Assembly (NCBI GenBank): GCA_963716255.1
Contig: OY970303.1
Location: 1 to 64,000, forward strand
Length of the DNA: 64,000 nt
Reading direction: 5' to 3'
From: an uncultured Gemmatimonadales bacterium
GTDB taxonomy: Bacteria; Gemmatimonadota; Gemmatimonadetes; Longimicrobiales; Longimicrobiaceae
Shown: positions 1 through 39,419 of the stretch, piece after piece
Layout: the number at the start of each line of letters is the position of its first letter
How positions within the stretch are numbered: the first letter of the stretch is position 1
The notes under the pieces: model-generated
Told to the model about the DNA's origin: nothing
The model's database searches: none
The model's input: only the letters and a program-made list of their open reading frames with translations
Translations under genes and position numbers: made by a program

Positions 1-3000
1 GTGTTGATGAAGAGGCCCACCATCTCCTCCACCCCCGGCAGCTCCGCCGGGCGCCCGGAAACGGTGGTGCCGAAGAGCACGTCCTCCTCGCCCGAGTAGC
101 GCGACAGCAGCAGGGCCCACGTGCCCTGCAGCAGCGTGCTCGCCGTCACCCCCCAGCTCCGTACCCGCTCCTGCAAGGCGCTCGTCCGCTCCGGCGTGAG
201 GTGGAGCCGCGCCTCCCCGAGCCCCTGCGCCTCCGCGCGGGCGCTCCGCACATGCAGGGGGAGGGGAGTGGGGGTAGTGAAGCCCGCCAGCACCTCGCGC
301 CAGAACGCCTCGGCGCGCGTCAGCTCCTGCCGCTCCAGCCACGCCACGTACTCCCGGTAGCGCCGCGCCGGCCCCAGGCGCGCGGCCTCGCCCCGCCAGT
401 GCGCCTGGTACAGCGACAGCACTTCGCGCAGCAGCAGCGAGACACTCCAGCCGTCCAGGACCAGGTGGTGGTGCGTCCACACCAGGTGGTGCTCCCCCTC
501 TCCCGTGCGGAAGAGCGCCAGCCGCATCAGCGGCGCAGCGGCCAGGTCGAAGCCGCGCGCCCGGTCCTCCACGAGGTACGCCGCCAGCCGCTCCCGCTGC
601 GCCTCCTCCCCCAGCCCCCGCAAGTCCTCGCGCCGAAGCGGCACCTCCACCTCGCGCCGGATCACCTGCACCGGACGCCGCAGACCCTCCCACGCGAAGC
701 CCGCTCGCAGCGCCTCGTGCCGCCCCACCCCCTCCCGCCACGCCCGCTCCAGCGACCCCGCGTCCAGCTCCCCCTCCAGAACGTACCCGTACTGCCCCAG
801 GTACACCCCCGCCTCCGGCGCGTACAGCGCGTGGAAGAGCATCCCCTCCTGCATCGGCGTCAGCGGGTACACGTCCTCCACACCCCGCCCGCTCCCCACG
901 AGCGCGTCCACCTCGGCCTGCGACAGCCCCGCCAGCGCGAAGTCCGACGGCGTGCACCCCCCCGCTCCCGCCGTCGTGCAGTGCGCGATCAGCTCCCGCA
1001 GCGCTTCGGCGTACCCCCCCGCCACGCGCTCGATCGTGGCCCGCCGGTGCACCCCCGCCCCGTAGCCGAACGTCATCTCCAGACGCCCCCCCTGCACCGC
1101 CCCGTTCAGCTCCAGCCGGTGCGCCCGCGACCCCCGAGGGTCCGCAGACGCTCCCGCCGACTCTCCCGCGAACCCAAAGTACGCCCCCTCCGAGACCGTC
1201 CCGTCCAGCTGCCCCAGGTAGTTGAACGCCACCTCCGCAGCCGGCCCCCCCGACAGCTCCGCTCGCACTTCGGGCGCCCCCTGGTAGCGCAGCAGACCGT
1301 ACCCCAGGCCGCGCCGCGGCACCGCCCGAAGCTGCTCCTTGACCGCCTTCAGCGCGGCCCCGGGCCCGGCGCCCTCCGGCACCTCCAGCACCACCGGGTA
1401 CAGGCTCGTGAACCACCCCACCGTGCGAGACACGTCCGCGCCCCCGCCCACTTCCTCCTCCCGCCCGTGCCCCTCCAGGTTCACCCGCACCCGCGCCGAG
1501 CCCGTCCACCGACCCAGCGCACGCGCCAGCCCCGTCAGAAGCACGTCGTCGATCTGCGTGCGGTACGCCTGCGGAACCTCCCGAAGCAGCGCCTGCGTCT
1601 CCCCCTCGCTCAGCCGCACCGACACGCTCCCCGCGCTTCCCACCGTGTCCGCCCCCGCCGCGTCGTCCACCGGCAGCGGCCCCACCTCGCGACGCGACTG
1701 CTCGACCCAGTAGCCCGCCTCCTCCGCAACCGCCGGCGACGCAGCCCGCTGGGCGAGCGCCTCGGCCCACCTCTTCCACGACGTCGTCTTTGCCGGCAGG
1801 CGCACCCCCTCCCCACGCGACAGCTGACGGTACGCCGTCTCCAGGTCTTCCAGCAGGATGCGCCAGCTCACCCCGTCGACGACCAGGTGGTGGATCACCA
1901 CCAGCAGCCGCTGCTCCCTGCCTCCCAGCGTGAAGAGCACCACCCGCAGCAGCGGCCCCCCCTCCAGATCCAGGCTCCGCTGCGCACGCTCCGCCGCCGC
2001 CTCCAGCGCGCTCCTGCGAACATCCTCCGCCAGCGCCGAGAGTTCCACCACCTCGACGGACGCGTGCGCTCCTACCTCGTCGTGCCACTGCCGCCACGTG
2101 CTCGCCTCGTCCCGGCGGAAGCGCAGCCGCAGCGCGTCGTGGTGCGCCTCCAGCGCGGACACCGCCCCCTCCAGCAGCTCCGCCCGAAACCGCTCGCGAG
2201 GCACCAGCAGCAGCGCCTGGTTGTAGTGCTGCGCCCCAGGCAGCGCCCGCTCGAAGAACCACGACTGGATCGGCGTCAGCGGCGCCTCGCCGCTCACCGC
2301 GCCCTGCGGCGCACCGCCGCCCCCGGACTCCGCCTCCTCCACGACGCGCGCCAGGCGCGCCACCGTGGGGTGTTCGAAGAGCTGCCGCGGCGACAGCTTC
2401 AGCCCCCGCTGACGAGCGCGGGCGACCACCTGGATGGAGAGGATGCTGTCGCCCCCCAGCTCGAAAAAGCTTTCCTCCACCCCCACCCGCTCCAGACGCA
2501 GCACCTCCGCCCACACCGCGCTCAGCGCCTCCTCGGCGGGCGTGCGCGGCGACACGTACTCTGACGATCCGCTCCACTCCGGGGCCGGGAGCCCCCGGCG
2601 GTCCAGCTTGCCGTTGGGCGTCAGCGGCAGCCGGTCCAGCGTCACGAACGCCGTCGGCACCATGTACTCCGGCAGCTGCGCCTGGAGTCTCGCGCGCAGC
2701 TCGCCCAGGCCGGCCTCGGCCCCCGTCTCCGGCACCACGTAGGCGACCAGGCGCTTCCGTCCCGGCTCGTCCTCCCGCGCCACCACCGCGGCGTCCCGTA
2801 CGCCCGGGTGCGCCCGCAGCACCGTCTCGATCTCGCCCAGCTCGATCCGGAAGCCCCGCACCTTCACCTGGTCGTCGATGCGCCCCAGGTACTCCAGCTC
2901 TCCCGCCGCACTCCACCGCACCCGGTCTCCCGAGCGGTACAGCCGTGCTCCCGGCTCCGCTGGATACGGGTCCGGGACGAAGCGGGCAGCGGTAAGCTCC

Positions 3001-6000
3001 GGCCGTCCCAGGTAGCCCCGCGCCACCCCCGCGCCGCCCACGTACAGCTCGCCCGGCACTCCCGCCGGCGCCACGTTCCCCCACGCGTCCAGAACCCGCA
3101 CGCACAGGTCCGGGATCGCCTCCCCCACCGGGCTCCGCTCCCCCGCCTCCACGTCGCTCCAGCGGATGTGGCGGTAGGTCACGTGGACGGTGGTCTCCGT
3201 GATGCCGTACATGTTCACCAGCCGCGGCCGCTCCTCGCCGTGCCGCTCCATCCATCCGCGCAGCGTGCGTGGATCCAGCCCCTCGCCCCCGAAGACCACG
3301 TGACGCAACGCCAGCTCCGGCGAGACCCCGCGCGCCTCCTCCGCGGCGGACAGCTGCTGGAAGGCGGAGGGGGTCTGGCTCAGCACGGTCACCCGCTCGC
3401 GCGCGAGCAGCGCGTAGAACTCCTCGGGCGAGCGGCTGGTTTCGAAGGGGACTACGACCAGGCGCCCGCCGTACAGGAGCGCGCCCCAGATCTCCCAGAC
3501 GGAGAAGTCGAAGGCGTACGAGTGGAACAGCGTCCACACGTCGTCCGCCCCGAAACCGAACCAGGAGTGGGTGGCCTGGAAGAGGCGCACGACGCTGGCG
3601 TGCGTGACTACGACACCCTTGGGGCGGCCGGTGGAGCCCGAGGTGTAGATGACGTAAGCCGCGTTCTCCGGGCGCACCTCCCCCTGCGGCGGGTCTTCAC
3701 CCCCGGACGCGTCGCCCAGCGCCTCCTCCAGGGAAAGCACCGCCGCCGCCGTGGGCGGGAGGGCGGCGCGCAGCTCCTCCTGCACCAGGACGGCGGCGCA
3801 CCCGGAGTCCTCTAGCAGGTACGCGATGCGGTCCACCGGATAGGTGGGGTCCACGGGCACGTAGGCGCCCCCGGCACGGAGGATCCCCAGGATCCCGACG
3901 GCCAGGTCGGCGGAGCGCTCGGCGCACAGTGCGACGCGGGTCTCGGGGCGGACACCCCGGTGCCGGAGATGGCGCGCCACGCGGCCGGCCCCGCGGTCCA
4001 GCTCCGCGTACGTCAGCGATTCCTCGCGGAAGACCACGGCCACGGCGCCGGGGGTCCGCGCCGCCTGCCCGGCAAAAAGCTCGTGGACGCAGGCCGGCGG
4101 ATACGCGACCGTCGTGGCACTCCATGCCTCCAGCAGCTGCGCCCGCTCGGCGTCCCGCAGCAGCGACACCTGCGCGAGATGCCGCTCCTCGCCCACCACG
4201 ATCATCTCCATCACCCGCTCCAGGTGGCCCATCAGCCGCCCGGAGGCGCCGCCCTCGACGCGCGCACGGTCGTAGCGCAGCTGCAGCTCCAGCCGCTCTC
4301 CCCGCGACACTGTCAGCACCAGCGGGAAGTTGGTCTGCTCCATGCTCAGTCCGGCCCGGACACGCAGCCCGTCCACCCCGTCCGCGACCACCACCTCCAG
4401 CGTGTGGTTGTCCAGCACCACCAGGCTCTCGAAGAGCGCTTCCCCGGTGGGGACCTCGCTCCATTTCTGCACCTGCACCAGCGGCGCGTGCTCGAACTCC
4501 CGCGCTCGCGCCTGCCGCCCTTGCAGCTCCTCCAGCCACTCCCGCAGCGTCGCATCGCCCGCCGCACGCACCCGCACCGGGAGCGTGTTGATGAAGAGCC
4601 CCACCGTCTCTTCCACCCCCGGCAGCTCCGCCGGGCGCCCGGAAACGGTGGTGCCGAAGAGCACGTCCTCCTCGCCCGAGTAGCGCGACAGCAGCAGCGC
4701 CCATGCGCTCTGCACCAGCGTGCCCACCGTCACCCCCCAGCTCCGGCAGCGCTCCTGCAGCGCGCTCGTCCCCTCCGCTGTGAGGCGCAGCCGGGCCTCG
4801 CCCAGCCCCGGCTCGGCGCCGGCCGCGGCGCGCCTCAGCGGGAGCGGGGTGGGCGCGGTGAAGCCCGCCAGCACCTCGCGCCAGAACGCCTCGGCGCGCG
4901 TCAGCTCCTGCCGCTCCAGCCACGCCACGTACTCCCGGTACCGCCTCGTCGGCCCCAGGCGCGCGGACTCGCCCCTCGCGTGCGCGTTGTAGAGCGCGAG
5001 GACGTCGCGGAAGAGAACCGCCAGGCTCCAGCCGTCCAGGATCAGGTGATGGTGCGTCCACACCAGGTGGTGCTCCCCCTCTCCCGTGCGGAAGAGCGCC
5101 AGCCGCATCAGCGGCGCAGCGGCCAGGTCGAAGCCGCGCGCCCGGTCCTCCACGAGGTACGCCGCCAGCCGCTCCCGCTGCGCCTCCTCCCCCAGCCCCC
5201 GCAAGTCCTCGCGCCGAAGCGGCACCTCCACCTCGCGCCGGATCACCTGCACCGGACGCCGCAGACCCTCCCACGCGAAGCCCGCTCGCAGCGCCTCGTG
5301 CCGCCCCACCCCCTCCCGCCACGCCCGCTCCAGCGACCCCACGTCCAGCTCCCCCTCCAGAACGTACCCGTACTGCCCCAGGTACACCCCCGCCTCCGGC
5401 GCGTACAGCGCGTGGAAGAGCATCCCCTCCTGCATCGGCGTCAGCGGGTACACGTCCTCCACACCCCGCCCGCTCCCCACGAGCGCGTCCACCTCGGCCT
5501 GCGACAGCCCCGCCAGCGCGAAGTCCGACGGCGTGCACCCCCCCGCTCCCGCCGTCGTGCAGTGCGCGATCAGCTCCCGCAGCGCTTCGGCGTACCCCCC
5601 CGCCACGCGCTCGATCGTGGCCCGCCGGTGCACCCCCGCCCCGTAGCCGAACGTCATCTCCAGACGCCCCCCCTGCACCGCCCCGTTCAGCTCCAGCCGG
5701 TGCGCCCGCGACCCCCGAGGGTCCGCAGACGCTCCCGCCGACTCTCCCGCGAACCCAAAGTACGCCCCCTCCGAGACCGTCCCGTCCAGCTGCCCCAGGT
5801 AGTTGAACGCCACCTCCGCAGCCGGCCCCCCCGACAGCTCCGCTCGCACTTCGGGCGCCCCCTGGTAGCGCAGCAGACCGTACCCCAGGCCGCGCCGCGG
5901 CACCGCCCGAAGCTGCTCCTTGACCGCCTTCAGCGCGGCCCCGGGCCCGGCGCCCTCCGGCACCTCCAGCACCACCGGGTACAGGCTCGTGAACCACCCC

Positions 6001-9000
6001 ACCGTGCGAGACACGTCCGCGCCCCCGCCCACTTCCTCCTCCCGCCCGTGCCCCTCCAGGTTCACCCGCACCCGCGCCGAGCCCGTCCACCGACCCAGCG
6101 CACGCGCCAGCCCCGTCAGAAGCACGTCGTCGATCTGCGTGCGGTACGCCTGCGGAACCTCCCGAAGCAGCGCCTGCGTCTCCCCCTCGCTCAGCCGCAC
6201 CGACACGCTCCCCGCGCTTCCCACCGTGTCCGCCCCCGCCGCGTCGTCCACCGGCAGCGGCCCCACCTCGCGACGCGACTGCTCGACCCAGTAGCCCGCC
6301 TCCTCCGCAACCGCCGGCGACGCAGCCCGCTGGGCGAGCGCCTCGGCCCACCTCTTCCACGACGTCGTCTTCGCCGGCAGGCGCACCCCCTCCCCACGCG
6401 ACAGCTGACGGTACGCCGTCTCCAGGTCCTCCAGCAGGATGCGCCAGCTCACCCCGTCGACGACCAGGTGGTGGATCACCACCAGCAGCCGCTGCTCCCT
6501 GCCTCCCAGCGTGAAGAGCACCACCCGCAGCAGCGGCCCCCCCTCCAGATCCAGGCTCCGCTGCGCACGCTCCGCCGCCGCCGCCAGCGCCGCCCCCGGC
6601 GCCGCCCCGGGAAGAGCCGACAACTCCACCACCTCCACCGGGGCGCGCTCTGCCGCGGGGGCGTGCTCCTGCACCCACCGCCCCGCGGCGCCCCGCCGGA
6701 AGCGCAGCCGCAGCGCGTCGTGGTGCGCCTCCAGCGCGGACACCGCCCCCTCCAGCAGCTCCGCCCGAAACCGCTCGCGAGGCACCAGCAGCAGCGCCTG
6801 GTTGTAGTGCTGCGCCCCAGGCAGCGCCCGCTCGAAGAACCACGACTGGATCGGCGTCAGCGGCGCCTCGCCGCTCACCGCGCCCTGCGGCGCACCGCCG
6901 CCCCCGGACTCCGCCTCCTCCACGACGCGCGCCAGGCGCGCCACCGTGGGGTGTTCGAAGAGCTGCCGCGGCGACAGCTTCAGCCCCCGCTGACGAGCGC
7001 GGGCGACCACCTGGATGGAGAGGATGCTGTCGCCCCCCAGCTCGAAAAAGCTTTCCTCCACCCCCACCCGCTCCAGACGCAGCACCTCCGCCCACACCTC
7101 GCTCAGCGCCTCCTCGGCGGGCGTGCGCGGAGATACGTACTCTGACGATCCGCTCCACTCCGGGGCCGGGAGCCCCCGGCGGTCCAGCTTGCCGTTGGGT
7201 GTCAGCGGCAGCCGGTCCAGCGTCACGAACGCCGTCGGCACCATGTACTCCGGCAGCTGCGCCTGGAGTCTCGCGCGCAGCTCGCCCAGGCCGGCCTCGG
7301 CCCCCGTCTCCGGCACCACGTAGGCGACCAGGCGCTTCCGTCCCGGCTCGTCCTCCCGCGCCACCACCGCGGCGTCCCGTACGCCCGGGTGCGCCCGCAG
7401 CACCGTCTCGATCTCGCCCAGCTCGATCCGGAAGCCCCGTACCTTCACCTGGTCGTCGATGCGCCCCAGGTACTCCAGCATCCCGGCGGCGGTCCAGCGC
7501 GTGCGGTCCATCGTCCTGTACATCCGCCCCGTCGGCGCGCCGTACGGGTCCGGGAGGAAGCGCTCCGCCGTCAGCTCCGGCAGGCCGTGGTAGCCGCGCG
7601 CCAGCCCGGCTCCCGCCAGGTAGAGCTCGCCCACCACGCCCACCGGGACCGGCCGCAGCTCCGCGTCCAGCACGTACGCCCGCGAGTCCGCCTTGGCGCG
7701 CCCGATCAGCATGCGCGCGGCGCCCCGCTCCACGCACCAGTAGGTGGAGTAGGTAGTGTCCTCGGTGGGGCCGTACACGTTGCCGACGCGGTCCACGTGG
7801 CCGAGCCCGTACAGCCCCTGCGCCAGCTCGTTCGGGAGCGCCTCGCCCGCCAGGTTCACGGTCCGCACGCTCGCCGGGATCCCGCCGGAACGCAGCAGCT
7901 CCGCCGCGGCGGTGGGCACCATGCTGGCGTAGACGACGGGCTCCCCGGCCGACGCCAGCTCAAGGGCGTTCTCCACCAGCACCAGCTTCCCGCCCCAGCA
8001 CAGCGCGCCGAAGATCTCGGCCACCGAGACGTCGAAGGAGATGGAGGTCGACCCGAGAAGCGCGCTCCGCTCCTCGTCCGAGATGATCTCCCGGAGCCAG
8101 TGCAGCAGGACCACCACGGACGAGTGGCGGACCATCACCCCGCGGGGCCGCCCCGTGGAGCCGGAGGTGTAGATGACGTGCGACAGGTTCTCCGGGAGCA
8201 CGCCGCTCTCCGGGGCCGCATCGCTCCGCGCGGCGATGGCTTCGCGGTCGGCGTCCACCCGGACGGTCCGCACCCCCTCGACGGACACTCGCCCGGACAG
8301 CCGCTCCTGCACCAGCACCACGGGGGCACCGGCGTCGGAGACCATGTAGGCCAGCCGCTCGGCGGGGTAGGCGGGGTCCAGCGGGAGGTAGGCGCCGCCG
8401 GCCTTGAGGATGCCGAGCATCCCCACCACCATCTCGATCCCGCGCTCCAGGCAGATCCCCACCGGCACCTCCGGCCCCACTCCCAGCCGCCGCAGGTGGT
8501 CGGCGAGGCGGTTGGCCCGCCGGTCCAGCTCCCCGTAGGTGAGCGCCTCGCCGCCGAAGGCGACCGCCGGCGCGTCCGGAGCGCGCGCAGCCTGGACGGC
8601 GAACAAATCGTGGACACACCCGCGCGGGTGCCCGGCGGCCGTGTCATTCCACGCCTCCAGCACCTGCGCGCGCTCCGCATCGTGGAGCAGCGACACCTCG
8701 GCGAGGCGGCGCTGGGGGTGCGCGGCCAGCACCCCCAGCACGGCCTGCAGGTGCCCCAGCATCCGCTCGCCAGTGCCGGGCTCGAAGCGGGAGGGGTCCC
8801 AGGCGGCCTGCACCCGGAGCCCCCGCCCCGGGACGACGATCACGGTGAGCGGGTAGTTGGACTGCTCGCGGGTACCCCGGCTCTCGATGCGGAGCGGCCG
8901 CTCCGTCCGGAGCAGCTCCTCGAACGGGTAGTTCTCGTAGGCGAAGAGGCTCTCGAAGAGCGGCGTGCCGGCGGGGACCTCGCTCCAGCGCTGCACCTGC

Positions 9001-12000
9001 GCCAGGGGGGCGTGCTCGTGGTCGCGCGCCTCCGCCTGCCGCTCCTGCAGCGACCGCAGCCAGGGGAGAACCGGCGTCTCCGGGGCCACCCGCGCCCGCA
9101 CGGGGAGGGTGTTGATGAAGAGCCCCACCATCTCCTCCACCCCCGCCAGCTCCGCCGGCCGCCCCGACACAGCGCCCCCGAAGACGACGTCCTCCTCCCC
9201 GGCGTAGCGGGAGAGCAGGAGCGCCCACGCGCCCTGCAGCAGGGTGTTGACGGTCAACTCGCCGCGGCGCGCCGCGGCGTTGAGGGCGTCCACGAGCTCC
9301 GCCGGGAGCGTGGTCTCCACCCGCTCGTAGCCGGCCCCGCCCGGCAGCCGCGTGCCGCTGGCCTCTCCCACCGGCGTCGGCGCCGCGAAGCCGGCGAGCG
9401 CGTCCCGCCAGAACCGCTCGGTCCGGGTGGGGTCCTGCCGCCGGAGCCACGCCACGTAGTCGCGGTACCGCGGGGCGGCTCCCCCCGCCGGGTCTCCTCC
9501 CGCGACGAAGGCGTCGTACCCTTCCAGCACCTCCCGGAAGACCACGGGGAGGCTCCACCCGTCCAGGAGGACCTGGTGGAAGGTCCACACCAGCTCACAC
9601 GCCGCTTCGTCCGTGCGGAAGAGCGCCAGCCGCATCAGCGGCGGGGCGGCGAGGTCGAAGCCGCGCGCCCGGTCTTCCGCGAGGTACGCCTCCAGCCGCG
9701 CCTCCCGCTCCTCCCGGGCGAGGCCCCGCCAGTCCAGGCGCAGGACCGGGAGCTCAACCGCGCGTCGCACTACCTGCAGCGGCCGGGGCAGCCCTTCGTG
9801 CGCCAGGCCGGTGCGGAGCGACGCGTGCCGCTCCAGGAGGCGCCGCCACGCCCGCTCGAAGGCGCCTTCGTCCAGCACCCCCGCCAGCCCGAAGCGGTAC
9901 TGCGCTACGTACACCCCGCTCCCCGGGGCGTACAGCGTCTCGAAGTGGATCCCCTCCTGGGTGGGGGTGAGCGGGTACGCGTCCTCCACGTCCCCCCAAC
10001 TCGCCACCAGCGCGTCCACCCCGGCCCGGTCCAGCCCGGCGAGGGGGAAGTCCGAGGGGGTGCAGCCTCCCGCCTCCCCGGAGCGGCAGTGGTCCAGCAG
10101 CCCGCGCAGCTCCGCGACGTACCGCCCGGCCAGCGCCTCCACGGTCTCGCGCCGGTGAACCCCCTCGCCGTACGTCCAGTCGACCCGCAGCTTCCCGCCC
10201 TCCACGATGGCGACGACCTCCAGGAGGTGGGCGCGCGGGGCGAGCGGGCTCACTCCCGGGCCAGCCGTCTCGGCGGACAGGCCGAAGAGCGACGCGCCGG
10301 ACACCGACGAGTCCACCTGCCCCAGGTAGTTGAACGAGACCTGCGCCTCGGGTAGCGCCGCCAGACGCTCCCGGGCTCCCGCGTCGGGGGCCAGGTAGCG
10401 CAGCGCGCCGTACCCGATCCCCCGCCTCGGGACGCCACGGAGCTGCTCCTTGACGCGCTTCAGCGACTCGCCCACCCCCTCCGCCCCGTCCACGTCGAGG
10501 CGGACCGGGTACACCGTCGTGAGCCAGCCCACGGTGCGGGACAGCTCCACCTCCTCGAACAGCTCCTCGCGCCCGTGCCCTTCCAGGTCCACGAGGAGGC
10601 ACGAATCCCCTGTCCACCCCTGGAACGCCCGCGCCAGCGCGGTGAGGAGCGCGTCGTCCACCCGGGTGCGGTAGGCCGCCGGCACTTCCTGGAGCAGCGC
10701 CCGGGTGTCGTCCGGCTCCAGCGCCACCGACACCGTGCGCGCCGCGGACGTCGGGTTGGGGCCGGGGGCGTCCACCGGGAGGGGGCGCAGCGTCCGCTGC
10801 GCCCCCTCCGTCCAGTATTCCAGCTCGGCGTCGAAGCCGCCGCGGGCCGCGTGCTCCGCCAGGCGCGCAGCCCATTCGCGGAACGAGGTCGTCTTCGCCG
10901 GGAGCGCGGGGCGCTCGCCGCGCTCCAGCTGCTCGCAGGCCGCCTGCAGGTCCTCCACGACGATCCGCCAGGAGACGCCGTCCACCACCAGGTGGTGCGC
11001 CGCGAGGAGGAGCCGGGCGCGGTTCCCGCTCCCCGGCTGGAAGAGGAGGGCGCGGAAGAGGGGGCCGCGCTCCAGGTCGAGCGAGGCCTGCGCGACGGCG
11101 CAGCGGCGTTCCACCTGGGCGGCCAGCTCCGCAGCCGGGACCCCGGAGAGGTCCACCCTTTCCACGGGCACGGCCGCCTCCGCGGGCGCGGCGTACCGCT
11201 GCGTCCACCCGCCGCTCGCCTGCCGCGCGTAGCGGAAGCGGAGGGCGTCGTGGTGCCGCACCACCACGCCCAGCGCCCCCTCCAGTAGCGCCGGGTCCAC
11301 CGGCCGGCGGAGCTCCAGCAGGAGCGGCATGTTCCAGTGGGCACGCCCGGGGATCTCCTGCTCGAAGAACCAGCGCTGCACGGGGAGAAGCTGCGCCGGA
11401 CCGGTCAGCGCCTCCTGGGTGGCCAGGACCGGCGCCGCCGACCCCGCCACCGCCGCGAGCCGGGCGGGAGTGGGGTGGAGGAAGACCTGCCGCGGGCGGA
11501 GATCCAGCCCCGCGCGCCGCGCCCGGGAGACCACCTGTATGGCAAGGATAGAGTCGCCGCCCAGCTCGAAGAAGTTGTCGTGCACCCCCACGCGCTCCAC
11601 GCGCAGCACCTCGGCCCAGACGCGCGCCAGCGTCTCCTCCGCCGCGTTGCGGGGAGCCTGGTACGCTTCCCCGCCGCCGAGCCTCCCCTCCTCCGGGACG
11701 GGGAGGGCGCGGCGGTCCAGCTTGCCGTTCGGGGTGAGCGGGAGGGCGTCCACCGCCACGAACACCGCCGGGACCATGTGCTCCGGCAGGCGCTCCACCA
11801 GGTGGGCGCGCAGGGCGTGCAGCGAGACCCCGTCCGCGCGGGCGGCCGGCCCCCCCGCCGCCTCCGGGACCACGTACGCCACCAGCCGCCGCTCCCCGGG
11901 CACGTCCTCGCGCACCATCACCGCTGCCTGCCGGACTGCCGGGTGCTCGGCGAGCGCCGCCTCGATCTCGGCGGGCTCCAAGCGGAAGCCGCGCACCTTG

Positions 12001-14609
12001 ACCTGCTCGTCCAGCCGCCCCAGGAACTCCACCGTGCCGTCCGGCGTCCACCGCACCCGGTCGCCCGTGCGGTACAGGCGCGCCCCCGTGGTCTCCCCGA
12101 AAGGGTCGGGGACAAACCTCGCGGCGGTGAGGTCCGGCCGGCCGAGGTAGCCTCGCGCCACCCCCTCGCCCCCCACGAACAGCTCGCCCGGCACCCCCAT
12201 CGGCACCGGCTGCCCCGCGGGGTCCAGCACGTGGATGGCGACGTTGGCGAGGGCGCTCCCCACCGGTAGGTTGGCGTGGACGGAGCCGTCCTCCCCCGCC
12301 GCCAGCCGCAGCGTGGTGGAGGTGACGGTCGTCTCGGTGAGTCCGAAGACGTGCACCAGCGGGACGCCGAGCCGTGCCCACTCGTGCAGCCGGTCGGGGA
12401 GGACCCGCTCGCCGCCCACGATCACGAAGCGGACGCAGGACGGGAGCCCCGCCCCCTCCTCCGCCAGCCCACGCACCCACTCGTGCCAGAAGGCGGTGGG
12501 GAGCTCCAGCCCGGTCACCCCGCGGTCCTCCAGCACCCGCGCCAGGTCGGCGGGCGCGCCCAGCAGCTCCGCTTCGGGGAACACCACGGCCGCCCCGCTC
12601 AGCCACGCCGGGAAGACCTCCTCCACCATGACGTCGAAGCTCGGGGAGGCGAACTGCAGGAACCGGTCGGCGGGGGTCAGCTCCAGCTCCTGGTGCATCG
12701 CCTCCGCGAAGCAGAGGAGAGAGCGGTGCGAGACCATCACTCCCTTGGGCCGGCCGGTGGAGCCGGAGGTGTAGATCACATACGCCAGGCTCTCCGGGAA
12801 CGCGCCCCGGACCGCGGCGCCCGGCGAGGACCCACCCTCCGGGTGGTGGTCGAGGCACATCACCTCCCCGGCGCCCCGGGGGAGCCGGTCGAGGAGGGAG
12901 GAGTGGGTCAGCACCACCGCGGCGCCGCTGTCGGCCAGGAGGAAGCCCAGCCGCTCGGCCGGGTACGCCGGGTCCAGGGGGACGTACGCTCCCCCGGCGC
13001 CGAGCACGCCCAGCAGCGCCGTGGCGAGCTCCACCCCACGCTCCAGGAAGATCCCTACTCGGTCCTCGGGACCCACCCCCCGCGCCCGCAGCGCGGCGGC
13101 CACGTCCCCCGCCGCCGCCAGCAGCTCGCGGTACGAGAGCGAGCGGCCGCCGCAAACGGCGGCGGGAGCGTGAGGCCATCGCGCCGCCCGCTCCGCGATC
13201 ACCTCCTGCACCAGCGCGTCGCGCGGGAAGTCGGCGACGGTGCTCGCGGCCCCGGCTAGGAGCCACTCGCGCTCGTCCGCGGCGATCACGGACACCTCCC
13301 GCAGCGGACGCCTGGGCGCGGCGGCGAAGGCCTCCAGCACGTTGCCGAAGTGCCTCAGCACCTGCTCGGCCTCCTCGGGGTGGAAGCGCCCGCGGCGGAA
13401 GGCGCACTCCACCTGCATCTCCTCCCCGACGGGGGATACCGTCAGGCAGAGCGGATAGTCGTCCACCTCGAGCCCCCACGCGTCCTCCACCCCGTAGCGG
13501 TCGCGGGCGGAGGGATCCACCGGGTAGTTCTGGAAGGACACGAAGCTCTCGAAGAGCGGCTGGCCCCTGTCCACCTCGCTCCACTTCTGCACCTGCACCA
13601 GCGGGGAGTACTCGAACTCGCGCGTTTCGACCTGCCGGCGGTGCAGCCGCTGGAGCCAGCCGAGGACCGGTTCGTCGGACCAGACCCGGACCCGCACGGG
13701 GAGGGTGGCGATGAACACGCCGACGATCTCCTCCATCCCCTCCAGCTCCGGCGGACGGCCGGAGACGGAGGACCCGAAGAGCACGTCGTCCTCCCCCGAG
13801 TAGCGGGACAGGAGGATCGCCCACGCGCCCTGCACCGCCGTGTTGGCCGTGACCTGGGCGCCGCGGGCCAGTTCGTGGACTGCGGCGGTGGCCGCGCGGG
13901 AGAGGCGCGCGGAGCACCGTCCTGTCTCCGTGCTCTCCGGCGCGGCGGTCCCGGCGGACCGGCCGATCCCCAGCGGCGTGGGGGCGGAGAACCCGGCCAG
14001 TTCCTCCCTCCAGAAGCGCTCCGCGCCCTCCATGTCCTGTCGCTTCAGCCAGGCGATGTAGTCGCGGTACGGCCTGGGCCGGGGAAGGCACGCCTCGCGG
14101 CCGGCCAGCCGTGCCTCGTACAGCGCGATCACCTCCCGGTACACGACGCCCAGGCTCCACCCGTCCAGGATCATGTGGTGGTGCGTCCACACCAGCTGGT
14201 ACGACGCGTCGCCCAGGCGGAAGAGCGCCACCCGCATGAGCGGCGGCCGGGCCAGGTCGAACCCCGCCTCCCGGTCGGCGCGCACGTACTCGACGATGCG
14301 ATGCTCCTGCTCCGCCGCCGGCACGTCGCGCCAGTCCTCGTACCGGAAGGGGAGCGTCGCGTCCCTGCGGACCACCTGCAGCGGCGCGTCCACCTTCTCC
14401 CAGGCGAAGGCGGTCCTCAGCGCCGGGTGCCGGTGCACCACCGCCCCCCACGCCTCTTCGAAGGGGCCGTGGGAGAGCTCGGTGCGGAGCCGGAGCCCGA
14501 GCTGTCCGATGTAGACGCCGGACCCCTGGTCGGACAGGGTGTGGAAGAGCATCCCCTCCTGCGTGGGAGAGAGGGGATACACGTCTTCCATGATCGCGCG
14601 CTTGCTCAT
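1..14609 (-). CDS. Giant NRPS, partial (runs off window start): C-A1-T-E-C-A2-T-E-C-A3-T-E-C...
   Basis: ATG at 14609 ([23 protein letters not shown]). The same frame holds at spot checks 11777, 9590, 7244, 2663 and 23. Motifs: YTSGSTG A3 loops, [10 protein letters not shown] domains, [11 protein letters not shown] domains ending TPSDFPL, HHxxxDGWS C domains. It is missing from the ORF track, consistent with no stop inside the window. Confidence 0.95.
470..2898. repeat. Copy 1 of ~2.4 kb near-identical direct repeat (Asub-T-E-C N-terminal part)
   Basis: Matches 5051-7479 at offset 4581 almost base for base, except a patch at ~2002-2117. Confidence 0.95.
5051..7479. repeat. Copy 2 of ~2.4 kb near-identical direct repeat
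   Basis: Matches 470-2898; divergent patch at ~6583-6698. Confidence 0.95.
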
Positions 14610-14901: not shown

Positions 14902-14948
14902 GCGGTCCGCGAGCGTAGTTTCGCCCCGCCCCGCTACTTCGGCCTCCG

Positions 14949-15977
14949 TCAGTACAGCACGCGCGAGGCGGCAGAGAGGCGCGCTTCCCGCGACTTGCGG
15001 AGGTCGCGCACCACGTTGATGCGCCTCAGCCAGCGGTCGGTGCCGTCGTAGCGTGCCCGGAAAGGCTTGCGGCCGTGCACCGCCTGGAAGTTGTCGATGA
15101 AGCAGAAGTCGCCGGGCTCCAGAACCTGGTCCTCCAGCGCGGAGTCCACCTGGCGGATGAGCTCATCCAGGGTGGCCTGCGCCACCGGGTCCTCCACCGT
15201 GTCCATGAAGAACGGGTCCAGGCGGACGTAAGGAGCCCGCAGGTCCCCGAAGAGCACAGGGATCCGCTCCGGGGAGCTCCACTGGTTCTCGATCTCGGCG
15301 TACGCGCGCCGGAGGAACTCCTCCTCCTCGGGCGGAACGCCGGCGTGGCCGCCGCTGTTCTTGGGGAGGTGCGACTCGTCGGGGCGGATGGTGAAGTGCG
15401 GGCTGGACAGCACGGCCACCTGCTCCGGTGTCAGCCGGACCCGGGAGATGGGGGCGAAGGTGGTGGGGACGCGGTCGGGGTTGCGCAGGCACATCATCCC
15501 CAGGTAGTCGCCCCGGTACGGGTGGAAGGCGTCTTCCACGTGCCAGGTCAGCGGTTCCTCGCTCCCGCTCCCCAGCTGCTCCTTCTCGTGCCCGCGGATG
15601 GGGAGGATGTCGTGCACCACCCGCCCGTCCTGCTGCGTGCTCCAGCCGATGGGCTCGCCCAGCAGCGACCCCAGGAGCAGGAGGAGCGAGTCCTCCTCGA
15701 CGGTATCGTTGGCGGGGTGGTGCCGCTTCCAGTGCTCGGGGGTGGGACCCACCTTGTCCTGGTCGACGGGGTAGCCGGACACCACCAGCAGCGCCTCCTC
15801 CGGCTCGTAAAGGCGGAACCGCCGCAGCGCCTGGCGGATGCGGCGCGGCAGCTCGTCCGCGATCACGCCTGCCTCGTCCAGGAACTCGCGCGCCTCCGCG
15901 GAGCCGTAGCGCGCGGAAAGCTCCGCGAGCAGTTGCCGGATCTCCGCCACCTCCCCATCGGTCATCACGATCCTCAT
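14949..15977 (-). CDS. Fe(II)/2-oxoglutarate dioxygenase, clavaminate-synthase-like, VioC/GntD-type basic amino acid hydroxylase
   Basis: GPTPEHW, GWSTQQDGRVVHDILP, WHVEDAF (HxE), DNFQAVHGRKPFRARYDGTDRWLRRINV..DLRKSR closely resemble VioC. AAAGGA RBS before ATG 15977. Confidence 0.9.
   Translation of the reverse strand: MRIVMTDGEVAEIRQLLAELSARYGSAEAREFLDEAGVIADELPRRIRQALRRFRLYEPEEALLVVSGYPVDQDKVGPTPEHWKRHHPANDTVEEDSLLLLLGSLLGEPIGWSTQQDGRVVHDILPIRGHEKEQLGSGSEEPLTWHVEDAFHPYRGDYLGMMCLRNPDRVPTTFAPISRVRLTPEQVAVLSSPHFTIRPDESHLPKNSGGHAGVPPEEEEFLRRAYAEIENQWSSPERIPVLFGDLRAPYVRLDPFFMDTVEDPVAQATLDELIRQVDSALEDQVLEPGDFCFIDNFQAVHGRKPFRARYDGTDRWLRRINVVRDLRKSREARLSAASRVLY

Positions 15978-18096: not shown

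Positions 18097-18100
<4 letters not shown>
16055..18100 (-). CDS. M1-family zinc metallopeptidase, predicted lipoprotein
   Basis: Lipobox LAAG-C after a hydrophobic signal, GGIEYP, HEVGH-x18-E (HEVGHQWF...WMDEG). Start overlaps the upstream NRPS stop (ATGA). Confidence 0.9.
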
Positions 18101-25830
<7,730 letters not shown>

Positions 25831-25977
25831 GTAGAGCGTGGGTTCTCGGGAAGGCCACAGGGATCCGTAGGTGGAGCGGACCGCCCCTGATTCCACCGAT
25901 TTTGTCGCCAATTGTTCCCCGGTCCGGACGTGGCCCGCCCTCCCCCGCCGGCGGCGGAGGGGGGCCGTGGGAGATGG

Positions 25978-28650
25978 TCAGCGGACCGGGATCCAGTACG
26001 TCGCCTTCAGCACCAGGAAGTTGTCCCCGCTCGCCTCCACCGACCTCGCCAGGTCGCCCGGCCCCACCGGGGAGCCCAGCGCCTCGCTGGCGAATCGGTC
26101 CTGCTGCCACACCATGAAGAAGGTGCTCCCGGGGCGCCACTCCCAGCGCAACACCGCGTTGCTGCGGAACGAGCGCACGTTGAAGTCGCGGAAGGGGAGG
26201 GTGAAGGCGCTGCTCCCGTCGGTGACGGTGTACGGCCCCCGCTCCTCCGCCTGGAGGATGGTGGTGCCGTCCGTGCCGTAGGTCCGCAGCCGCCGGCTCC
26301 GCGCCGCCTCCAGTTCGCCGAAGTCGTGGTAGCGACCGCTCGCCGCGAAGGGCTCGGCGTACAGCTCCAGCGACAGGTCGGGCTTGAGGGTGTAGTTCAG
26401 CCGCAGCTGCGTGGAGAGGGTGGTCCGGTCGATGAAGGAGAAGACGTAGCGGCTGCCGAAGGTGGCGGCGGAGCCACCGGCCCGGACCCCGACGTACTGC
26501 CGTGGGTTGGTCTCGCGGTAGAACGTGGGGCTCGCCGAGAGCTCCCACCGGGGGCTGGGGTGCAGCGTCACGCCCCCCGAGGCGACCACCAGCTCCTGCC
26601 CCAGGTCGCTGCCCCCCAGGTCCAGCCGCCCGATGATCCCGGTGACTGCCGCGGGGGGCCCCTGCACGTGCATCACCGTCCTCCACCCCCGCCCGGTGCG
26701 CATCAGCGGCCCACCGCGCGTGAGGTCGTTGTTCAGGGCGGGGAGGTACAGGTACCCCAGCACGACGGTGCGCCAGTAGCTCTGCCAGGTGGCGCGCGCC
26801 TCGCCGCTGAGGGCGCGGTACGTGTTCACCCCCTCGAAGTTCCACTGGTTCTCGGTGCCCGCCCGCAGCTGGTAGCTGCGGAAGGCCCCTCGCGGCCGCG
26901 TCTCACGGTACCGGAGGTCCGCCTGCCCCCAGATCTCGTCCGCCACGTTCTGGAAGCCCGCGTCGTTGAGCTCCAGCCCCGGCGAGATGGTGCTCGCGGT
27001 CGCGCCCCAGAGCCAGTGGCTCCCGGCGTTCCGCGACACGCCCAGTGAGCCCGCGAAACCGGAGAGCGAGGTGCGCGAGGGATCCAGGCGGACCGGGCTG
27101 GCGTCGGGACGCTGGAAGTAGCGGGCGGAGGCAAGCTGAGTGCGGAGGATGGCAAGCGAGTCCCCCTCGACGTGGCTGAAGCCGAGCGTCCCCTGCACCT
27201 GGTACTCGCCCCCGCGGAAGCGCAGGCTCCAGTCGGCCCCGCCGCTGTACGCCTCCCGGGCGAGGAGCGCGGCGAGCGGGGCGCCCGCGGGGAGGTCGCG
27301 GCGCGTGGCGACCAGACTCACCCCCGCCGTGGACCCGCTCCCGCCGAACTCCTGCTGCGCCCGCAGCACGCCGTACCCGGTCCGCGGGGCCACGCGGACG
27401 CGCCCAAAGTCCCCCCCGTCCCCGTCGAAGGTGCGCGCGTGCTCCTCGTCGGTCAAAGCGGCCAGCGCGCCGAGCGACAGCCCCGAGGGGAGACGCCCGG
27501 TGAGCTTGGCGGCGCCCAGGATGGTGGCGACCCGGGGACGGTCCAGGTACGAATAGGGGCCGATCCGCTCCTCCACCAGCGCGTCCACCACCTCGTCGCG
27601 CGCCGCGGCCCCGATGCGGCGTGAATAGAAGTGCTGCCGCTCCCCACCGGCCACGGCTCCCCCCGCTCCGAGGAGCTGGCTCCCCTCGATGAAGAAGAGG
27701 CGCTTCTCCGAGAAGGAGCTCTCGAAGGCGGTCAGGTTCACCTCCGCCGGGTCCGCCTCCACCTGCCCAAAGTCCGGGTTCACCGTCCCCTCGACGGTGA
27801 GGTTGGACCCCAGCCCCATCTTCAGGTCGCCGCCCGTGCGCACCGAGAGCCGGCTCCCGTCGTCGAAGGGGTTCCCGGTGCCGGGGGCGGCGGTGAAGTC
27901 TCCCCCGCCGGCGATGTACGGCATCACCTCCACCCGGCGGGTGGGGCGGACCGCGTCGATCCCCTCCAGCGTGCCGAAGCGCGAGGCCCACCCCGTCCCG
28001 GTAGTGGGGACCAGCGCCCAGTAGCTGTTCTCCTGTGTGACGGGGTTGCGCCGCATCACGTTGACGCCCCACCGCTGCCCTGGACGGGTGACGAAGCGGA
28101 GCTGGGAGAAGGGGATGCGCATCTCCGCCGTCCACCCCGCCGAGTCGTGGCGCACCGCGGCCTGCCAGACGGGATCGAAGGAGGCGTCGGTGTCGGCCTC
28201 GTCGTCCGAGGGGTGGTACCAGTCCAGCCGCGTCCCCGCGGCGGTCACGCCGAAGGTGTAGGCGGTCCGGCGGTCCAGGTAGGTGTCCAGGGAGACGAGC
28301 AGGTACTCCGCCTGCGTCGCGTTGTCGCGCCGGCTCAGTGGCGCCCGGATCCGGGCGGGGTCCAGGCTGTGCATGCGGGCACCCACGTAGAGCGCCTCGT
28401 CGTCGTACAGGAAGCGGACCTCGGTGCGCTCCCCGGCGGGCGCGCCCTCCACCGGCTGCCGCTGCCGGAGGTCGGTGAGCGCGGGCGCCGCGGCCCACGC
28501 CTCCTCGGTGAGGCGCCCGTCCAGCACGGGGCTGCGCCCCTCGCTGTGGACCGCGCGGACCGCCCCCCCCGGAGAAGCCTGGGCACGGAGCGGCCCCGCG
28601 CCCACCAGCAGAAGCGCCGCAACGGCGGCGGCCACGGTCGCACGCCTCAC
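25978..28650 (-). CDS. Secreted/outer-membrane protein, CBM9-like N-terminal domain plus DUF5916-type beta-rich domain
   Basis: Signal peptide after GTG 28650 (GGAGG RBS). Motifs PVLDGRL..W, YDDEALYVG, WTAEMRIPFSQLRF, NPDFGQVEAD, EKRLFFIEG; C-terminal LKATYWIP. Confidence 0.8.
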   Translation of the reverse strand: MRRATVAAAVAALLLVGAGPLRAQASPGGAVRAVHSEGRSPVLDGRLTEEAWAAAPALTDLRQRQPVEGAPAGERTEVRFLYDDEALYVGARMHSLDPARIRAPLSRRDNATQAEYLLVSLDTYLDRRTAYTFGVTAAGTRLDWYHPSDDEADTDASFDPVWQAAVRHDSAGWTAEMRIPFSQLRFVTRPGQRWGVNVMRRNPVTQENSYWALVPTTGTGWASRFGTLEGIDAVRPTRRVEVMPYIAGGGDFTAAPGTGNPFDDGSRLSVRTGGDLKMGLGSNLTVEGTVNPDFGQVEADPAEVNLTAFESSFSEKRLFFIEGSQLLGAGGAVAGGERQHFYSRRIGAAARDEVVDALVEERIGPYSYLDRPRVATILGAAKLTGRLPSGLSLGALAALTDEEHARTFDGDGGDFGRVRVAPRTGYGVLRAQQEFGGSGSTAGVSLVATRRDLPAGAPLAALLAREAYSGGADWSLRFRGGEYQVQGTLGFSHVEGDSLAILRTQLASARYFQRPDASPVRLDPSRTSLSGFAGSLGVSRNAGSHWLWGATASTISPGLELNDAGFQNVADEIWGQADLRYRETRPRGAFRSYQLRAGTENQWNFEGVNTYRALSGEARATWQSYWRTVVLGYLYLPALNNDLTRGGPLMRTGRGWRTVMHVQGPPAAVTGIIGRLDLGGSDLGQELVVASGGVTLHPSPRWELSASPTFYRETNPRQYVGVRAGGSAATFGSRYVFSFIDRTTLSTQLRLNYTLKPDLSLELYAEPFAASGRYHDFGELEAARSRRLRTYGTDGTTILQAEERGPYTVTDGSSAFTLPFRDFNVRSFRSNAVLRWEWRPGSTFFMVWQQDRFASEALGSPVGPGDLARSVEASGDNFLVLKATYWIPVR

Positions 28651-28767
28651 GCGCCCTCCAGCCGGGCCGTGGCGGGGCGGCACCGGGACCGGGTCATCGC
28701 GGGCTCCGGGGATGCAGGGGTGCGGTGATCATGGGCCGGGGTACGGGTGAGGCGAAGGGGACGGGCC

Positions 28768-28796
28768 ACCATAACCGAGGTTCGCGATCATGTCAA
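28768..28796 (-). promoter_or_regulatory. Sigma70-like promoter
   Basis: TTGACA-17 bp-TATGGT on minus strand upstream of the DUF5916 gene. Confidence 0.6.
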
Positions 28797-28930
28797 GCCA
28801 ACTTCTGTATAAAATCGTAAGAGTGCGCCCGCATCCCTCGGCGCCGCATCCGTCCACCGGAACGGCCCGTCCGTGCCGCCCGCACCCACAGTGCGCTTGG
28901 AACGGCGGAGGAAGATGGAGATCAGCGGCC

Positions 28931-37689
<8,759 letters not shown>

Positions 37690-37801: not shown

Positions 37802-37830
37802 ATCATATGCGCATATATCCTACCAATCAA
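37802..37830 (-). promoter_or_regulatory. Sigma70-like promoter of the PKS-NRPS with an overlapping palindrome
   Basis: TTGATT-17 bp-TATGAT on minus strand; ATATGCGCATAT palindrome at 37805-37816. Confidence 0.65.
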
Positions 37831-38099: not shown

Positions 38100-38142
38100 C
38101 GCCGCAGGAAAAATGCTCGGAACGTCTGACTACTAACTCAGG
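38100..38142 (-). mobile_element. Solo degenerate copy of the IS630 left end
   Basis: Reverse complement matches 41341-41383 at 37/43 positions. Confidence 0.7.
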
Positions 38143-38231
38143 ATCGACAGGACGTGCCGCGTACCACTCCGGCTTGGGGACGGAGATGTCCGGAAGCATT
38201 CCGGGCCGGGCCGACACGCTTGCGGGCGCGC

Positions 38232-39419
38232 TCACGCCGGAACCGCGGCGACGGCCGCCACAGCCCCGGCTTCCCGGGCCGTCTCCTCGATCAGCCGGTG
38301 GATCAGCCCGACCCCCCGCCGGGTCCGTTCCATGCTCTCGGTGCCCACCGACACCCGGATGAAGCGGTCGCAGGAACTACCGTAGCCGATTCCGGGCACG
38401 GTGCTGACGCGGTGCTCCGAGAGCAGCCGCGTACAAAACGCATCGGACGACAAGCAGGATCGCCCGATCGAAACGAAGATGTAAAACGTAGAATCTCCGG
38501 GGAGATACGAGATTCCGCGCGCGTCCATGAAGCGGACCATCTCGCACCGCCTCCGCACGACCTCCGCGATCTGGGGCCTGGTGATGTCGAGGATCTCGTC
38601 GAAGTGCCGCTCCAGGTAGTGCTGGAGAATGGTCGGAGCGCAGGTGACGAGGTGCTGGTTGATCTTGAGCACCTCGGCCGTCAGCTCAGGACGGGCAATC
38701 ACGTAGCCGATCCGCCACCCGGACATCCCGTAGTTCTTGGACATCGAGTTGCAGATGATGGTGTGCTTCTTCTCCGGGTCCAGCACGCCGCACGAGAGGA
38801 AGCCGCCGTCCGGCAGGAACTCGCTGTAGGCCTCGTCCGCGAGGAGGAACAGGTTGTGCCGGTCCGCCAGGCCGTGCAGGTGTTCCAGTTCCTCCAGCGA
38901 AAGGACCTTCCCCGACGGGTTGTTGGGATTGTTCACGATGATCGCCCGGGTCCGCGGGGTGATGAACTCACCCACCTCGAAGACGCTCCTGTCGAAGGGG
39001 ACCATGACCGGAACGGCGTGGCAAAGCTTGACCTGCTCCGTGTAGCTCACCCACGCCGGCTCTAGGACCACGACCTCGTCTCCGGGATTCAGGACAGCCA
39101 TGAGCGACATGTGAATGGCGATCTTGGATCCGGCCGTCACGACGACCTCGGTGTCCGGGTCCACCGGCACCCCATAGTGCTCCCGGTAGTACGCCGCCAG
39201 CCGCCGCCGCAACCCCGGGATCCCACGGGAATGGGTGTAGTGGTAGCCGTCGGGCATCGGCAGCTCCGCGAAGCTGAACAGCGGGATGTCGAAGAATGCC
39301 TCGCCCAGGGACAGCACGATGATGTCCTCGCCCCGGGACTTCATCTCGTAGACGAGGTTGTTGTACCGGATCGACAGGGCTTGGGCGATGTCCTCCAGGT
39401 GCGCCGCGGGTGCCGGCAT
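38232..39419 (-). CDS. PLP-dependent aminotransferase class I/II
   Basis: GGAGG RBS then MPAPAAHLED; NNPNNPSG, DEAY, SMSKNYGMSGWRIGY. Confidence 0.9.
   Translation of the reverse strand: MPAPAAHLEDIAQALSIRYNNLVYEMKSRGEDIIVLSLGEAFFDIPLFSFAELPMPDGYHYTHSRGIPGLRRRLAAYYREHYGVPVDPDTEVVVTAGSKIAIHMSLMAVLNPGDEVVVLEPAWVSYTEQVKLCHAVPVMVPFDRSVFEVGEFITPRTRAIIVNNPNNPSGKVLSLEELEHLHGLADRHNLFLLADEAYSEFLPDGGFLSCGVLDPEKKHTIICNSMSKNYGMSGWRIGYVIARPELTAEVLKINQHLVTCAPTILQHYLERHFDEILDITRPQIAEVVRRRCEMVRFMDARGISYLPGDSTFYIFVSIGRSCLSSDAFCTRLLSEHRVSTVPGIGYGSSCDRFIRVSVGTESMERTRRGVGLIHRLIEETAREAGAVAAVAAVPA

Follow-up and report, generated by a model that had tools for sequence, protein, structure and literature searches.

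Which compound is made by a peptide assembly line that carries three apparent defects, and are these defects fatal? The question is raised by a cluster of non-ribosomal peptide synthetase (NRPS) genes from an uncultured Gemmatimonadales bacterium (Longimicrobiaceae; assembly GCA_963716255.1, contig OY970303.1), in which the starter gene is split by a frameshift, an epimerisation (E) domain appears to be missing and one condensation (C) domain has glutamine in place of the catalytic histidine. The stretch of DNA analysed, hereafter the window, corresponds to bases 1–64,000 of a single 8,423,711-base contig (GC content, 73%). We consider it reasonably probable that the cluster encodes a 17-module line for a 17-residue lipopeptide, with D-capreomycidine or the 4-hydroxy form of it as the likely residue 4, which would be passed onward by a C domain featuring a conserved His-to-Gln change.

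Organization of the assembly line

Domains were called using Pfam, NCBIfam and profiles made from the cluster's own domains. The leftmost frame of the window stays open once the end of the contig is joined to its start and spans 9,299 codons; consequently, the original prediction, made from the window, had covered only the upstream half of the line. It described a co-oriented line with at least six adenylation (A) domains. All cluster genes indeed lie on the (−) strand, and 17 modules are found when the line is followed across the contig origin. The gene order is as follows: a pyridoxal phosphate (PLP) aminotransferase, a starter gene encoding a fatty-acid-AMP ligase (FAAL), a polyketide synthase (PKS) module and a C-A1-T unit (T, carrier domain), a DUF5916 protein, NRPS2, an M1 peptidase, a TauD-family hydroxylase, NRPS3, NRPS4, NRPS5, a radical S-adenosylmethionine (SAM) gene and an acylase remnant.

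NRPS2 (18097..25830) comprises modules 2 and 3, arranged as DCL-type C-A2-T-C-A3-T-E. NRPS3 begins in the window (1..14609) with modules 4–6, each C-A-T-E, and C7, and continues beyond the origin (contig 8423711 to 8410421) with the rest of modules 7–10. Modules 11–13 are encoded by NRPS4 (contig 8410264–8400491), and modules 14–17, together with a thioesterase (TE; PF00975), are encoded by NRPS5 (contig 8400494–8386818). Downstream of FAAL-PKS, the line thus features 17 C-A-T modules, five of which carry an E domain. Four consecutive E modules had been noticed earlier and correspond to modules 3, 4, 5 and 6; the fifth E domain, in module 8, lies beyond the origin. The product had been described as rich in D-amino acids, which suits the N-terminal run but not the whole peptide: only 5 of the 17 modules are epimerised, and the C-terminal half would therefore be L-configured.

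The codes extracted from alignments are DAEDIGTVVK, DTKDLALVDK, DVASFALSYK, DVEEIGVVTK, DVASNAVTYK and DFWSVGMVHK for A1–A6, DGRNLGLTAK, DVWHVSLVDK, DAFYVGEVWK, DAFFLGVTYK, DTKDLALVDK and DAFFLGVTYK for A7–A12, and DLTKVGHVGK, DVWHVSLVDK, DSWDVGLIGK, DVLWMGGVFK and DILQLGLVWK for A13–A17. The first six match, letter for letter, the codes that had been read by hand. The tenth and twelfth A domains differ at 4 of 1,707 bases, indicative of a recent duplication. The lysine of motif A10 is kept in all 17 A domains and the serine motif in all 17 T domains, and the ketosynthase (KS), acyltransferase (AT) and TE motifs are all present. By the usual code tables, the predicted residues are Lys1, possibly Glu2, Ser8, Ile10, possibly Glu11, Ile12, Asp13, Ser14, Val16 and Gly17. 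The 'Ala-like' residues that had been proposed for modules 3 and 5 are, like Glu2, tentative readings of the codes. PDB searches gave no assignment for A2. The assignment of module 6 to Thr fits the code table in PMC8399532.

These data point to a complete FAAL-PKS-NRPS lipopeptide line on a bounded island of 88 kb, the predicted product of which appears to be undescribed. The architecture had not been recognised as that of a characterised cluster, and named characterised NRPSs are absent from the 120 homologue matches listed (best identity, 58%). A whole orthologous cluster was not found in 71 genomes of the family, in which only two orthologues of the starter gene, on 8-kb contigs, were identified. 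Five genomes of the same genus gave no synthetase DNA above approximately 75% identity among the best 150 of 323 matches, and the relatives among the matches listed in a metagenome scan are only 30–45% identical. Literature searches returned no match to the six A-domain codes as text and no description of NRPS products of Gemmatimonadota. For Longimicrobium terrae, 12 predicted clusters have been reported, with no product described (PMC7291104).

A condensation domain variant probably linked to its donor

C5 (8685..9983, (−) strand) is located after the E domain of module 4 and scores as a DCL domain with the profiles made from the cluster's own domains. Its motif, HQVLLDG (9578–9573), differs from the canonical HHxxxDG in having Gln for the catalytic His. 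The change is not scattered in this genome. C domains that follow a module with both a DVEE-type code, such as that of A4, and an E domain feature Gln in 4 of 4 cases; HH is found after other E modules (31/31) and after DVEE modules without E (12/13, the thirteenth being probably mis-parsed). The hypothesis that Gln marks a dead domain was rejected, as Gln is conserved both in this genome and in others.

A scan of GTDB genomes for the Gln motif yielded 112 stretches, 41 of which lie inside C domains. Where the code of the E module preceding such a C domain can be read, it is of the DVEE type in 12 of 18 cases, from three phyla. Since a choice of loci based on the motif would be circular, a forward test was carried out on 40 loci out of approximately 115 A4-similar matches outside this genome, chosen by A4 similarity alone. 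Of the C domains that come next after 22 DVEE modules with E, 19 feature Q, two M and one H; those after L-modules, in which the DVEE code is found without an E domain, keep His in 17 of 17 cases. When clustered at 80% identity, the 22 modules fall into 21 groups. The pattern of the earlier motif scan could have matched no more than 8, and Q is present in 11 of the 14 cases that it could not have caught. Among the 120 NRPS homologue proteins, just four E-C pairs are present, and a DVEE code precedes none of them.

A precedent for a working C domain of this kind exists: according to PMC11546977, the ORF18 C domain of streptothricin (HQxxxDM) is active, a Gln-to-Ala change weakens its activity, and the role of the second His of condensation domains is still debated. 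Neither a donor-linked His-to-Gln rule nor the string 'HQxxxDG' was found among the matches listed in literature searches. Most likely, the cyclic guanidinium on the beta-carbon of the donor would replace the charged His, or clash with it, after inversion of the alpha-carbon. We tentatively propose, with somewhat less than even confidence, that an undescribed subtype, (H/L)QxxxDG, serves D-capreomycidine donors in Gemmatimonadota, Acidobacteriota and Myxococcota, the guanidinium taking the place of His, and that A(DVEE)-T-E-C(Gln) may be used as a mining signature.

HQxxxDG C domains also occur after other codes in Nostoc (L104, L125), Actinomycetota (L133, L168) and Paenibacillus (L096, L158); an above-cut-off VioD was not found in the three genomes of this set that were examined (L104, L133 and L168). 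A second 17-module FAAL-NRPS of the same contig (7244662–7308300) carries four consecutive E modules, of which two are DVEE-E modules, each followed by an LQxxxDG C domain.

The identity of residue 4

Module 4 (A(DVEEIGVVTK)-T-E; 10104..13277, (−) strand) had been predicted to install an unusual basic residue. This assignment can likely be refined to a residue of the type of capreomycidine, a rare cyclic amino acid, because A4-like domains co-occur with the cyclase VioD and DVEE domains lie between OrfP- and OrfR-type genes in streptothricin-like loci. In the 71 family genomes, an A4-like domain and an above-cut-off VioD are found together in 16; both are missing in 54, VioD alone is found in none, and the single genome with an A4-like domain only is 61% complete. 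The same split occurs inside one genus (both, 7; neither, 30). An above-cut-off VioD is also present in 5 of 5 Acidobacteriota and Myxococcota genomes with a DVEE module; none was found in five genomes where another code precedes a Gln-type C domain, nor in 14 controls.

Gene order points in the same direction. In 9 of 40 Streptomyces loci of the VioC family, a DVEE-coded A domain that stands alone is located just upstream of the hydroxylase, and a VioD/OrfR-like gene flanks its other side in all five of the nine loci for which open reading frames (ORFs) were listed. The hydroxylase of one Streptomyces locus (L211) is an OrfP orthologue, and OrfP and OrfR together yield hydroxy-capreomycidine, as stated in PMC9513391. 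Module 4 is thus likely to install D-capreomycidine or its 4-hydroxy form. Three Streptomyces loci (L213–L215) feature a cassette made of a VioD-like gene, a stand-alone A domain (DVEELGVVTK), a hydroxylase and one more gene; streptothricin-like neighbours are not in view.

The hydroxylase that had been noticed between the synthetases (14949..15977, (−) strand) belongs to the OrfP/VioC/GntD family of Fe/2-oxoglutarate arginine beta-hydroxylases. The protein scores 482.8 on NF041363 (GntD; cut-off, 345) and 408.3 on TIGR03946 (VioC), just under the cut-off of 418.6. The iron triad HxE...H is present (motifs WHVED and AVHGR), the closest PDB match is OrfP (4M23), and the protein has the OrfP-type Gln and Gly and a Phe at OrfP Tyr257 (residues as in PMC9513391). 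Its named homologues are Longimicrobium and Longimicrobiaceae proteins, and homologues in relatives adjoin true VioD genes. One above-cut-off VioD is encoded in the genome (contig 453221–454294; TIGR03947 score, 511), and its best PDB match is OrfR.

The region surrounding this VioD gene (contig 448000–459000) encodes a 4HPPD-like enzyme, a PLP enzyme, a thioesterase-like protein, VioD, an arginine hydroxylase and a cyclic-peptide exporter. It adjoins large NRPS genes, and a similar order is observed in several genomes of the same genus. The operon suggests a shared supply of capreomycidine; presumably, it also supplies hydroxyphenylglycine.

The starter gene, its frameshift and the missing E domain

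The frameshift-split starter gene (28931..37689, (−) strand) encodes FAAL-ACP-KS-AT-truncated DH-ACP-C-A1(DAEDIGTVVK)-T(GGDS), where ACP is an acyl carrier protein and DH a dehydratase. Neither a ketoreductase (KR) nor an E domain was found in it by Pfam, NCBIfam or the own-domain profiles. The best NCBIfam matches of residues 8–567 are fatty-acid-AMP ligases, all under cut-off. Sigma-70-like promoter matches are located upstream of the gene (37802..37830, (−) strand) and at 40831–40802 and 28796–28768, three in total against 0.3 expected; all are consensus matches only.

Two features of this gene speak against a working line. The frameshift, which interrupts A1 within a stretch of seven C residues (30019–30025) and is present in the assembly, would halt the line at module 1 if real. 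Moreover, T1 is an E-type carrier and C2 a DCL-like acceptor, yet no E domain lies between them; in this genome, 34 of the 44 GGDS carriers are followed by an E domain.

As to the frameshift, synthetase genes across the genome show 10 breaks inside domains, and 7 of these fall at 7-nucleotide G/C runs, compared with 53 of 3,000 random windows. One shared sequence context is broken in five paralogous domains, and no copy of the 8-G form of this context exists in the genome. The starter orthologues P0147 (2,987 residues) and P0160 (2,926 residues), which are 65–66% identical, are full-length and unbroken at A1. The clustering of breaks at 7-nucleotide runs and the unbroken orthologues favour a consensus error of the assembly in A1.

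As to the missing E1, P0147 and P0160 have the same domain layout as the starter protein, also ending after T, and partial orthologues in two additional loci (L062 and L063) likewise stop there. A tblastn search with five E domains against 25901–29200 gave nothing better than E = 0.44 as a remnant after T1. The view that E1 was lost by decay was rejected, since four orthologues also end at a GGDS carrier. This shared ending points to a family design; residue 1 may be of either configuration. In one orthologous locus, an ATP-binding cassette (ABC) exporter gene directly follows the starter gene, and in another a full-length acylase gene takes this place. Altogether, the A1 frameshift, the missing E1 and the His-to-Gln change of C5 are probably not fatal to the line.

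Alternative interpretations

Additional observations tell against a working line with D-capreomycidine at position 4. The cluster has no VioD, and its aminotransferase scores only 129 on TIGR03947. A4 matches ApnA A1, an Arg/Tyr domain, more closely (180.8 bits) than CmnG, a capreomycidine domain (121.6 bits), and the capreomycidine module of faulknamycin has a different code. The counted genomes are kin, and the counts therefore overstate independence. One DVEE module with E (L277) is followed by a C domain that keeps His, Gln-type C domains follow non-DVEE codes in 6 of the 18 readable E modules of the motif scan, and trees obtained by a quick method do not tell whether Gln arose once or several times. 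Lastly, real decay is seen at the island edges, where a C domain, an acylase and another DUF5916 gene survive as remnants. These broken genes, the frameshift in A1, the presence of an insertion sequence (IS) element and the lack of a PF00589 integrase inside the island would all fit a decaying island, in which the frameshift is real and the full product is no longer made. However, approximately 68 kb of synthetase sequence carries one break only, at the run type that holds most of the breaks genome-wide, and relatives share both the Gln motif and a T1 with no E domain after it; decay is unlikely. A reading less likely than decay places D-hydroxy-arginine in its open-chain form (mono- or dihydroxy) at position 4, formed by the cluster hydroxylase without ring closure. 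The cluster contains a hydroxylase without a cyclase, this enzyme falls in a clade other than that of the VioD-linked paralogue of the genome, and the best single-domain PDB match of A4 is an Arg-type domain. In contrast, a member of the cluster hydroxylase clade (L006/L030) directly adjoins VioD, and A4-like domains track VioD over the 71 genomes. Moreover, PMC8399532 offers a precedent in cyclofaulknamycin, whose vioC-only cluster leans largely on a distant PLP enzyme.

Two other alternatives involve different chemistry. As a KR is missing from the PKS module and the gene for the aminotransferase is directly upstream, the stand-alone enzyme might convert the beta-keto tail to a beta-amino fatty acid, leading to an iturin/puwainaphycin-like cyclic lipopeptide. 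In iturin and puwainaphycin systems, however, the aminotransferase domain is embedded after the PKS module. No embedded domain is present in the starter protein according to Pfam, the enzyme here being of class I/II and encoded by a separate gene upstream, and its closest homologues adjoin C-first NRPS genes with the module-7 code; a beta-amino tail is more doubtful than an open-chain residue 4. The least probable of the four alternatives is that E4 and C5(Gln) form D-capreomycidine on-line, beta-hydroxy-arginine being loaded, dehydrated and ring-closed on the thioester. Such a route has already been proposed for faulknamycin (PMC8399532; 10.1101/2023.03.21.533663), and the link of Gln to DVEE modules with E, and its absence from those without E, would agree with it. 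Nevertheless, the motif columns alone separate Gln- from His-type DCL domains (no column does so besides the pattern-selected motif neighbour), the motifs of E4 are ordinary, and genomes with the A4 type carry VioD, which this route would not need. The preferred reading is a working line to which VioD would supply capreomycidine for module 4.

Other genes of the cluster

The stand-alone class I/II PLP aminotransferase (38232..39419, (−) strand) likely provides the amino acid of module 7. In three loci (G034, G021 and G091), close homologues adjoin NRPS genes in which DGRNLGLTAK, the code of module 7, is found, which suggests this role. The remaining aminotransferase loci that were fetched lack this code or are too short, and a DNA pattern for the A7 code, which was too strict, matched 2 of 71 genomes.

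A surface peptidase and an outer-membrane protein had also been placed between the synthetases, and both are found there. The former is a lipoprotein M1 zinc aminopeptidase (16055..18100, (−) strand) that features a lipoprotein signal as well as HEVGH, which fits the HExxH motif; its start overlaps the NRPS2 stop. The latter is a DUF5916 protein (25978..28683, (−) strand; Pfam and structural model), the predicted fold of which features a CBM9-like N-terminal domain and a large outer-membrane beta-barrel (predicted local distance difference test score, pLDDT, 94.9). DUF5916 paralogues adjoin the hydroxylase or the radical SAM gene in four loci of relatives, and the barrel may possibly have a role in export or uptake. 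Several paralogues of both the peptidase and the barrel protein exist elsewhere in the genome.

Beyond the origin, NRPS5 is followed by a gene encoding a B12 radical-SAM C-methyltransferase (contig 8386733–8384808, (−) strand; TIGR03975 score, 479.9; cut-off, 281.85), for which no relative was found in a PDB search, and by a truncated acylase, a remnant at the cluster end. The window had been described as devoid of TE, MbtH and exporter genes; Pfam detects none among the cluster ORFs there, and the TE lies across the origin. A single MbtH-like motif match and a phosphopantetheinyl transferase (PPTase) are found together near 5.77 Mb, and a cyclic-peptide exporter is encoded at 450–452 kb.

The island and its genomic context

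The cluster resides in an island bounded by 44-bp direct repeats. One copy (42610..42653, (−) strand) corresponds to the 3' half of a tRNA-Cys gene (42611–42682), and the second marks the other boundary, across the origin (contig 8378111–8378154). The repeats enclose 88,254 bp, with the whole cluster inside. An empty site, tRNA-Gly-Cys-Glu-Met-Val, is present in one genome of the same genus (G006, L291). The distant repeat copy and the empty site indicate that the cluster is an integrated island, in which no PF00589 integrase was found. At the window-side edge, a DDE transposase gene (41414..42400, (+) strand; Pfam DDE_3 plus HTH), which we take to be of the IS630 type, is found together with a decayed C-domain remnant split over two frames (39632..40433, (−) strand). 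By eye, a transposase-like remnant is recognised near this repeat (40926–41300), and a small excisionase-like ORF near the far one (contig 8378672–8379187; L003:14622–15137). Beyond the island, the window (43002–64000) contains housekeeping genes, namely recN, mgtE, ybeY, a phoH-like gene, aspS, rlmN and panB.

The whole contig carries at least 464 A domains with 209 distinct complete codes, and NRPS/PKS domain runs cover about 1.64 Mb (19%) of the genome. Genomes of the same genus likewise gave hundreds of first-look candidates. In 29 A domains of the genome (e.g., at 327932, 2985552 and 7871831), an in-frame repeat-like insertion of 114–267 bases is found in one shared loop, at about profile position 144; none of them lies in this cluster.

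Proposed pathway and significance

In the proposed pathway, the FAAL would load a fatty acid, and one PKS round would add two carbons. As the starter protein lacks a KR and contains just half of a DH, the tail is expected to stay beta-keto. The predicted chain is Lys-Glu?-D-X-D-Cap-D-X-D-allo-Thr-X-D-Ser-X-Ile-Glu?-Ile-Asp-Ser-X-Val-Gly, where Cap is capreomycidine and X denotes a residue with no assignment. Arginine would be hydroxylated by the cluster hydroxylase and its ring closed by the capreomycidine synthase at 453 kb. E4 would then invert residue 4, and C5 would make the next bond without histidine. Release of the product would fall to the TE and C-methylation to the radical SAM enzyme, whereas an MbtH protein, a PPTase and an exporter would come from other parts of the genome.

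FAAL-PKS-NRPS lines are already known; the novelty lies in the apparently donor-linked His-to-Gln C subtype. The change is natural, recurs with a single donor residue of a single configuration and has L-configured controls within the same genomes. A(DVEE)-T-E-C(Gln) would give a predictive rule for D-capreomycidine, a residue that PMC8399532 describes from faulknamycins only. If true, this signature would mark a large unexplored class of D-capreomycidine peptides, including the predicted 17-mer lipopeptide.

Comparison with known systems

The clusters of faulknamycin and cyclofaulknamycin (fau, flk) resemble the one described here in that a VioC homologue, but not VioD, is encoded in the cluster. 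According to PMC8399532, D-capreomycidine is installed by a C-A-T-E module, and D-allo-Thr arises from Thr with an E domain; the code for Thr there, DFWSVGMVHK, is identical to that of module 6. In contrast, faulknamycin is a hexapeptide made by six modules, with no lipid tail and no TE, compared with 17 modules and a TE here, and its capreomycidine A code is DLAESGAVDK (Table 3) instead of DVEEIGVVTK. Among 40 Streptomyces loci taken from a set of 401 genomes, none could be recognised as carrying FlkS of faulknamycin.

The streptolidine cassette of streptothricin provides the best PDB matches of the cluster hydroxylase (OrfP) and of the genome cyclase (OrfR), with a DVEE A domain in between, and its ORF18 C domain is active and, like C5, has an HQxxxD motif. 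Streptothricin differs in being an aminosugar antibiotic made by stand-alone enzymes, and the donor of ORF18 is poly-beta-lysine, with no E domain. Viomycin and capreomycin (VioC, VioD, CmnG) use the same route of arginine hydroxylase and PLP cyclase. In both, L-capreomycidine is part of a cyclic pentapeptide, and the hydroxylase and cyclase genes are both in the cluster. CmnG-A of capreomycin is not the closest relative of A4.

With respect to the radical SAM gene, the discodermin synthetase and DscE likewise feature a long NRPS for a mixed D/L peptide alongside a cobalamin radical-SAM C-methyltransferase. PMC12858407 calls this pairing unusual and reports with DscE that such enzymes can methylate a finished non-ribosomal peptide; discodermin differs in its formyl starter and 14 modules, and the likeness to DscE is one of description. 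Mycosubtilin/iturin, puwainaphycin and ralsolamycin, as presented in PMC11837247, share the FAAL start, one PKS extension, NRPS modules and a TE, whereas the line described here has 17 modules in another order and comes from another phylum. By the features examined in its sequence, the cluster is outside the faulknamycin and beta-amino-lipopeptide families, and the line is predicted to run like known FAAL-PKS-NRPS lines.

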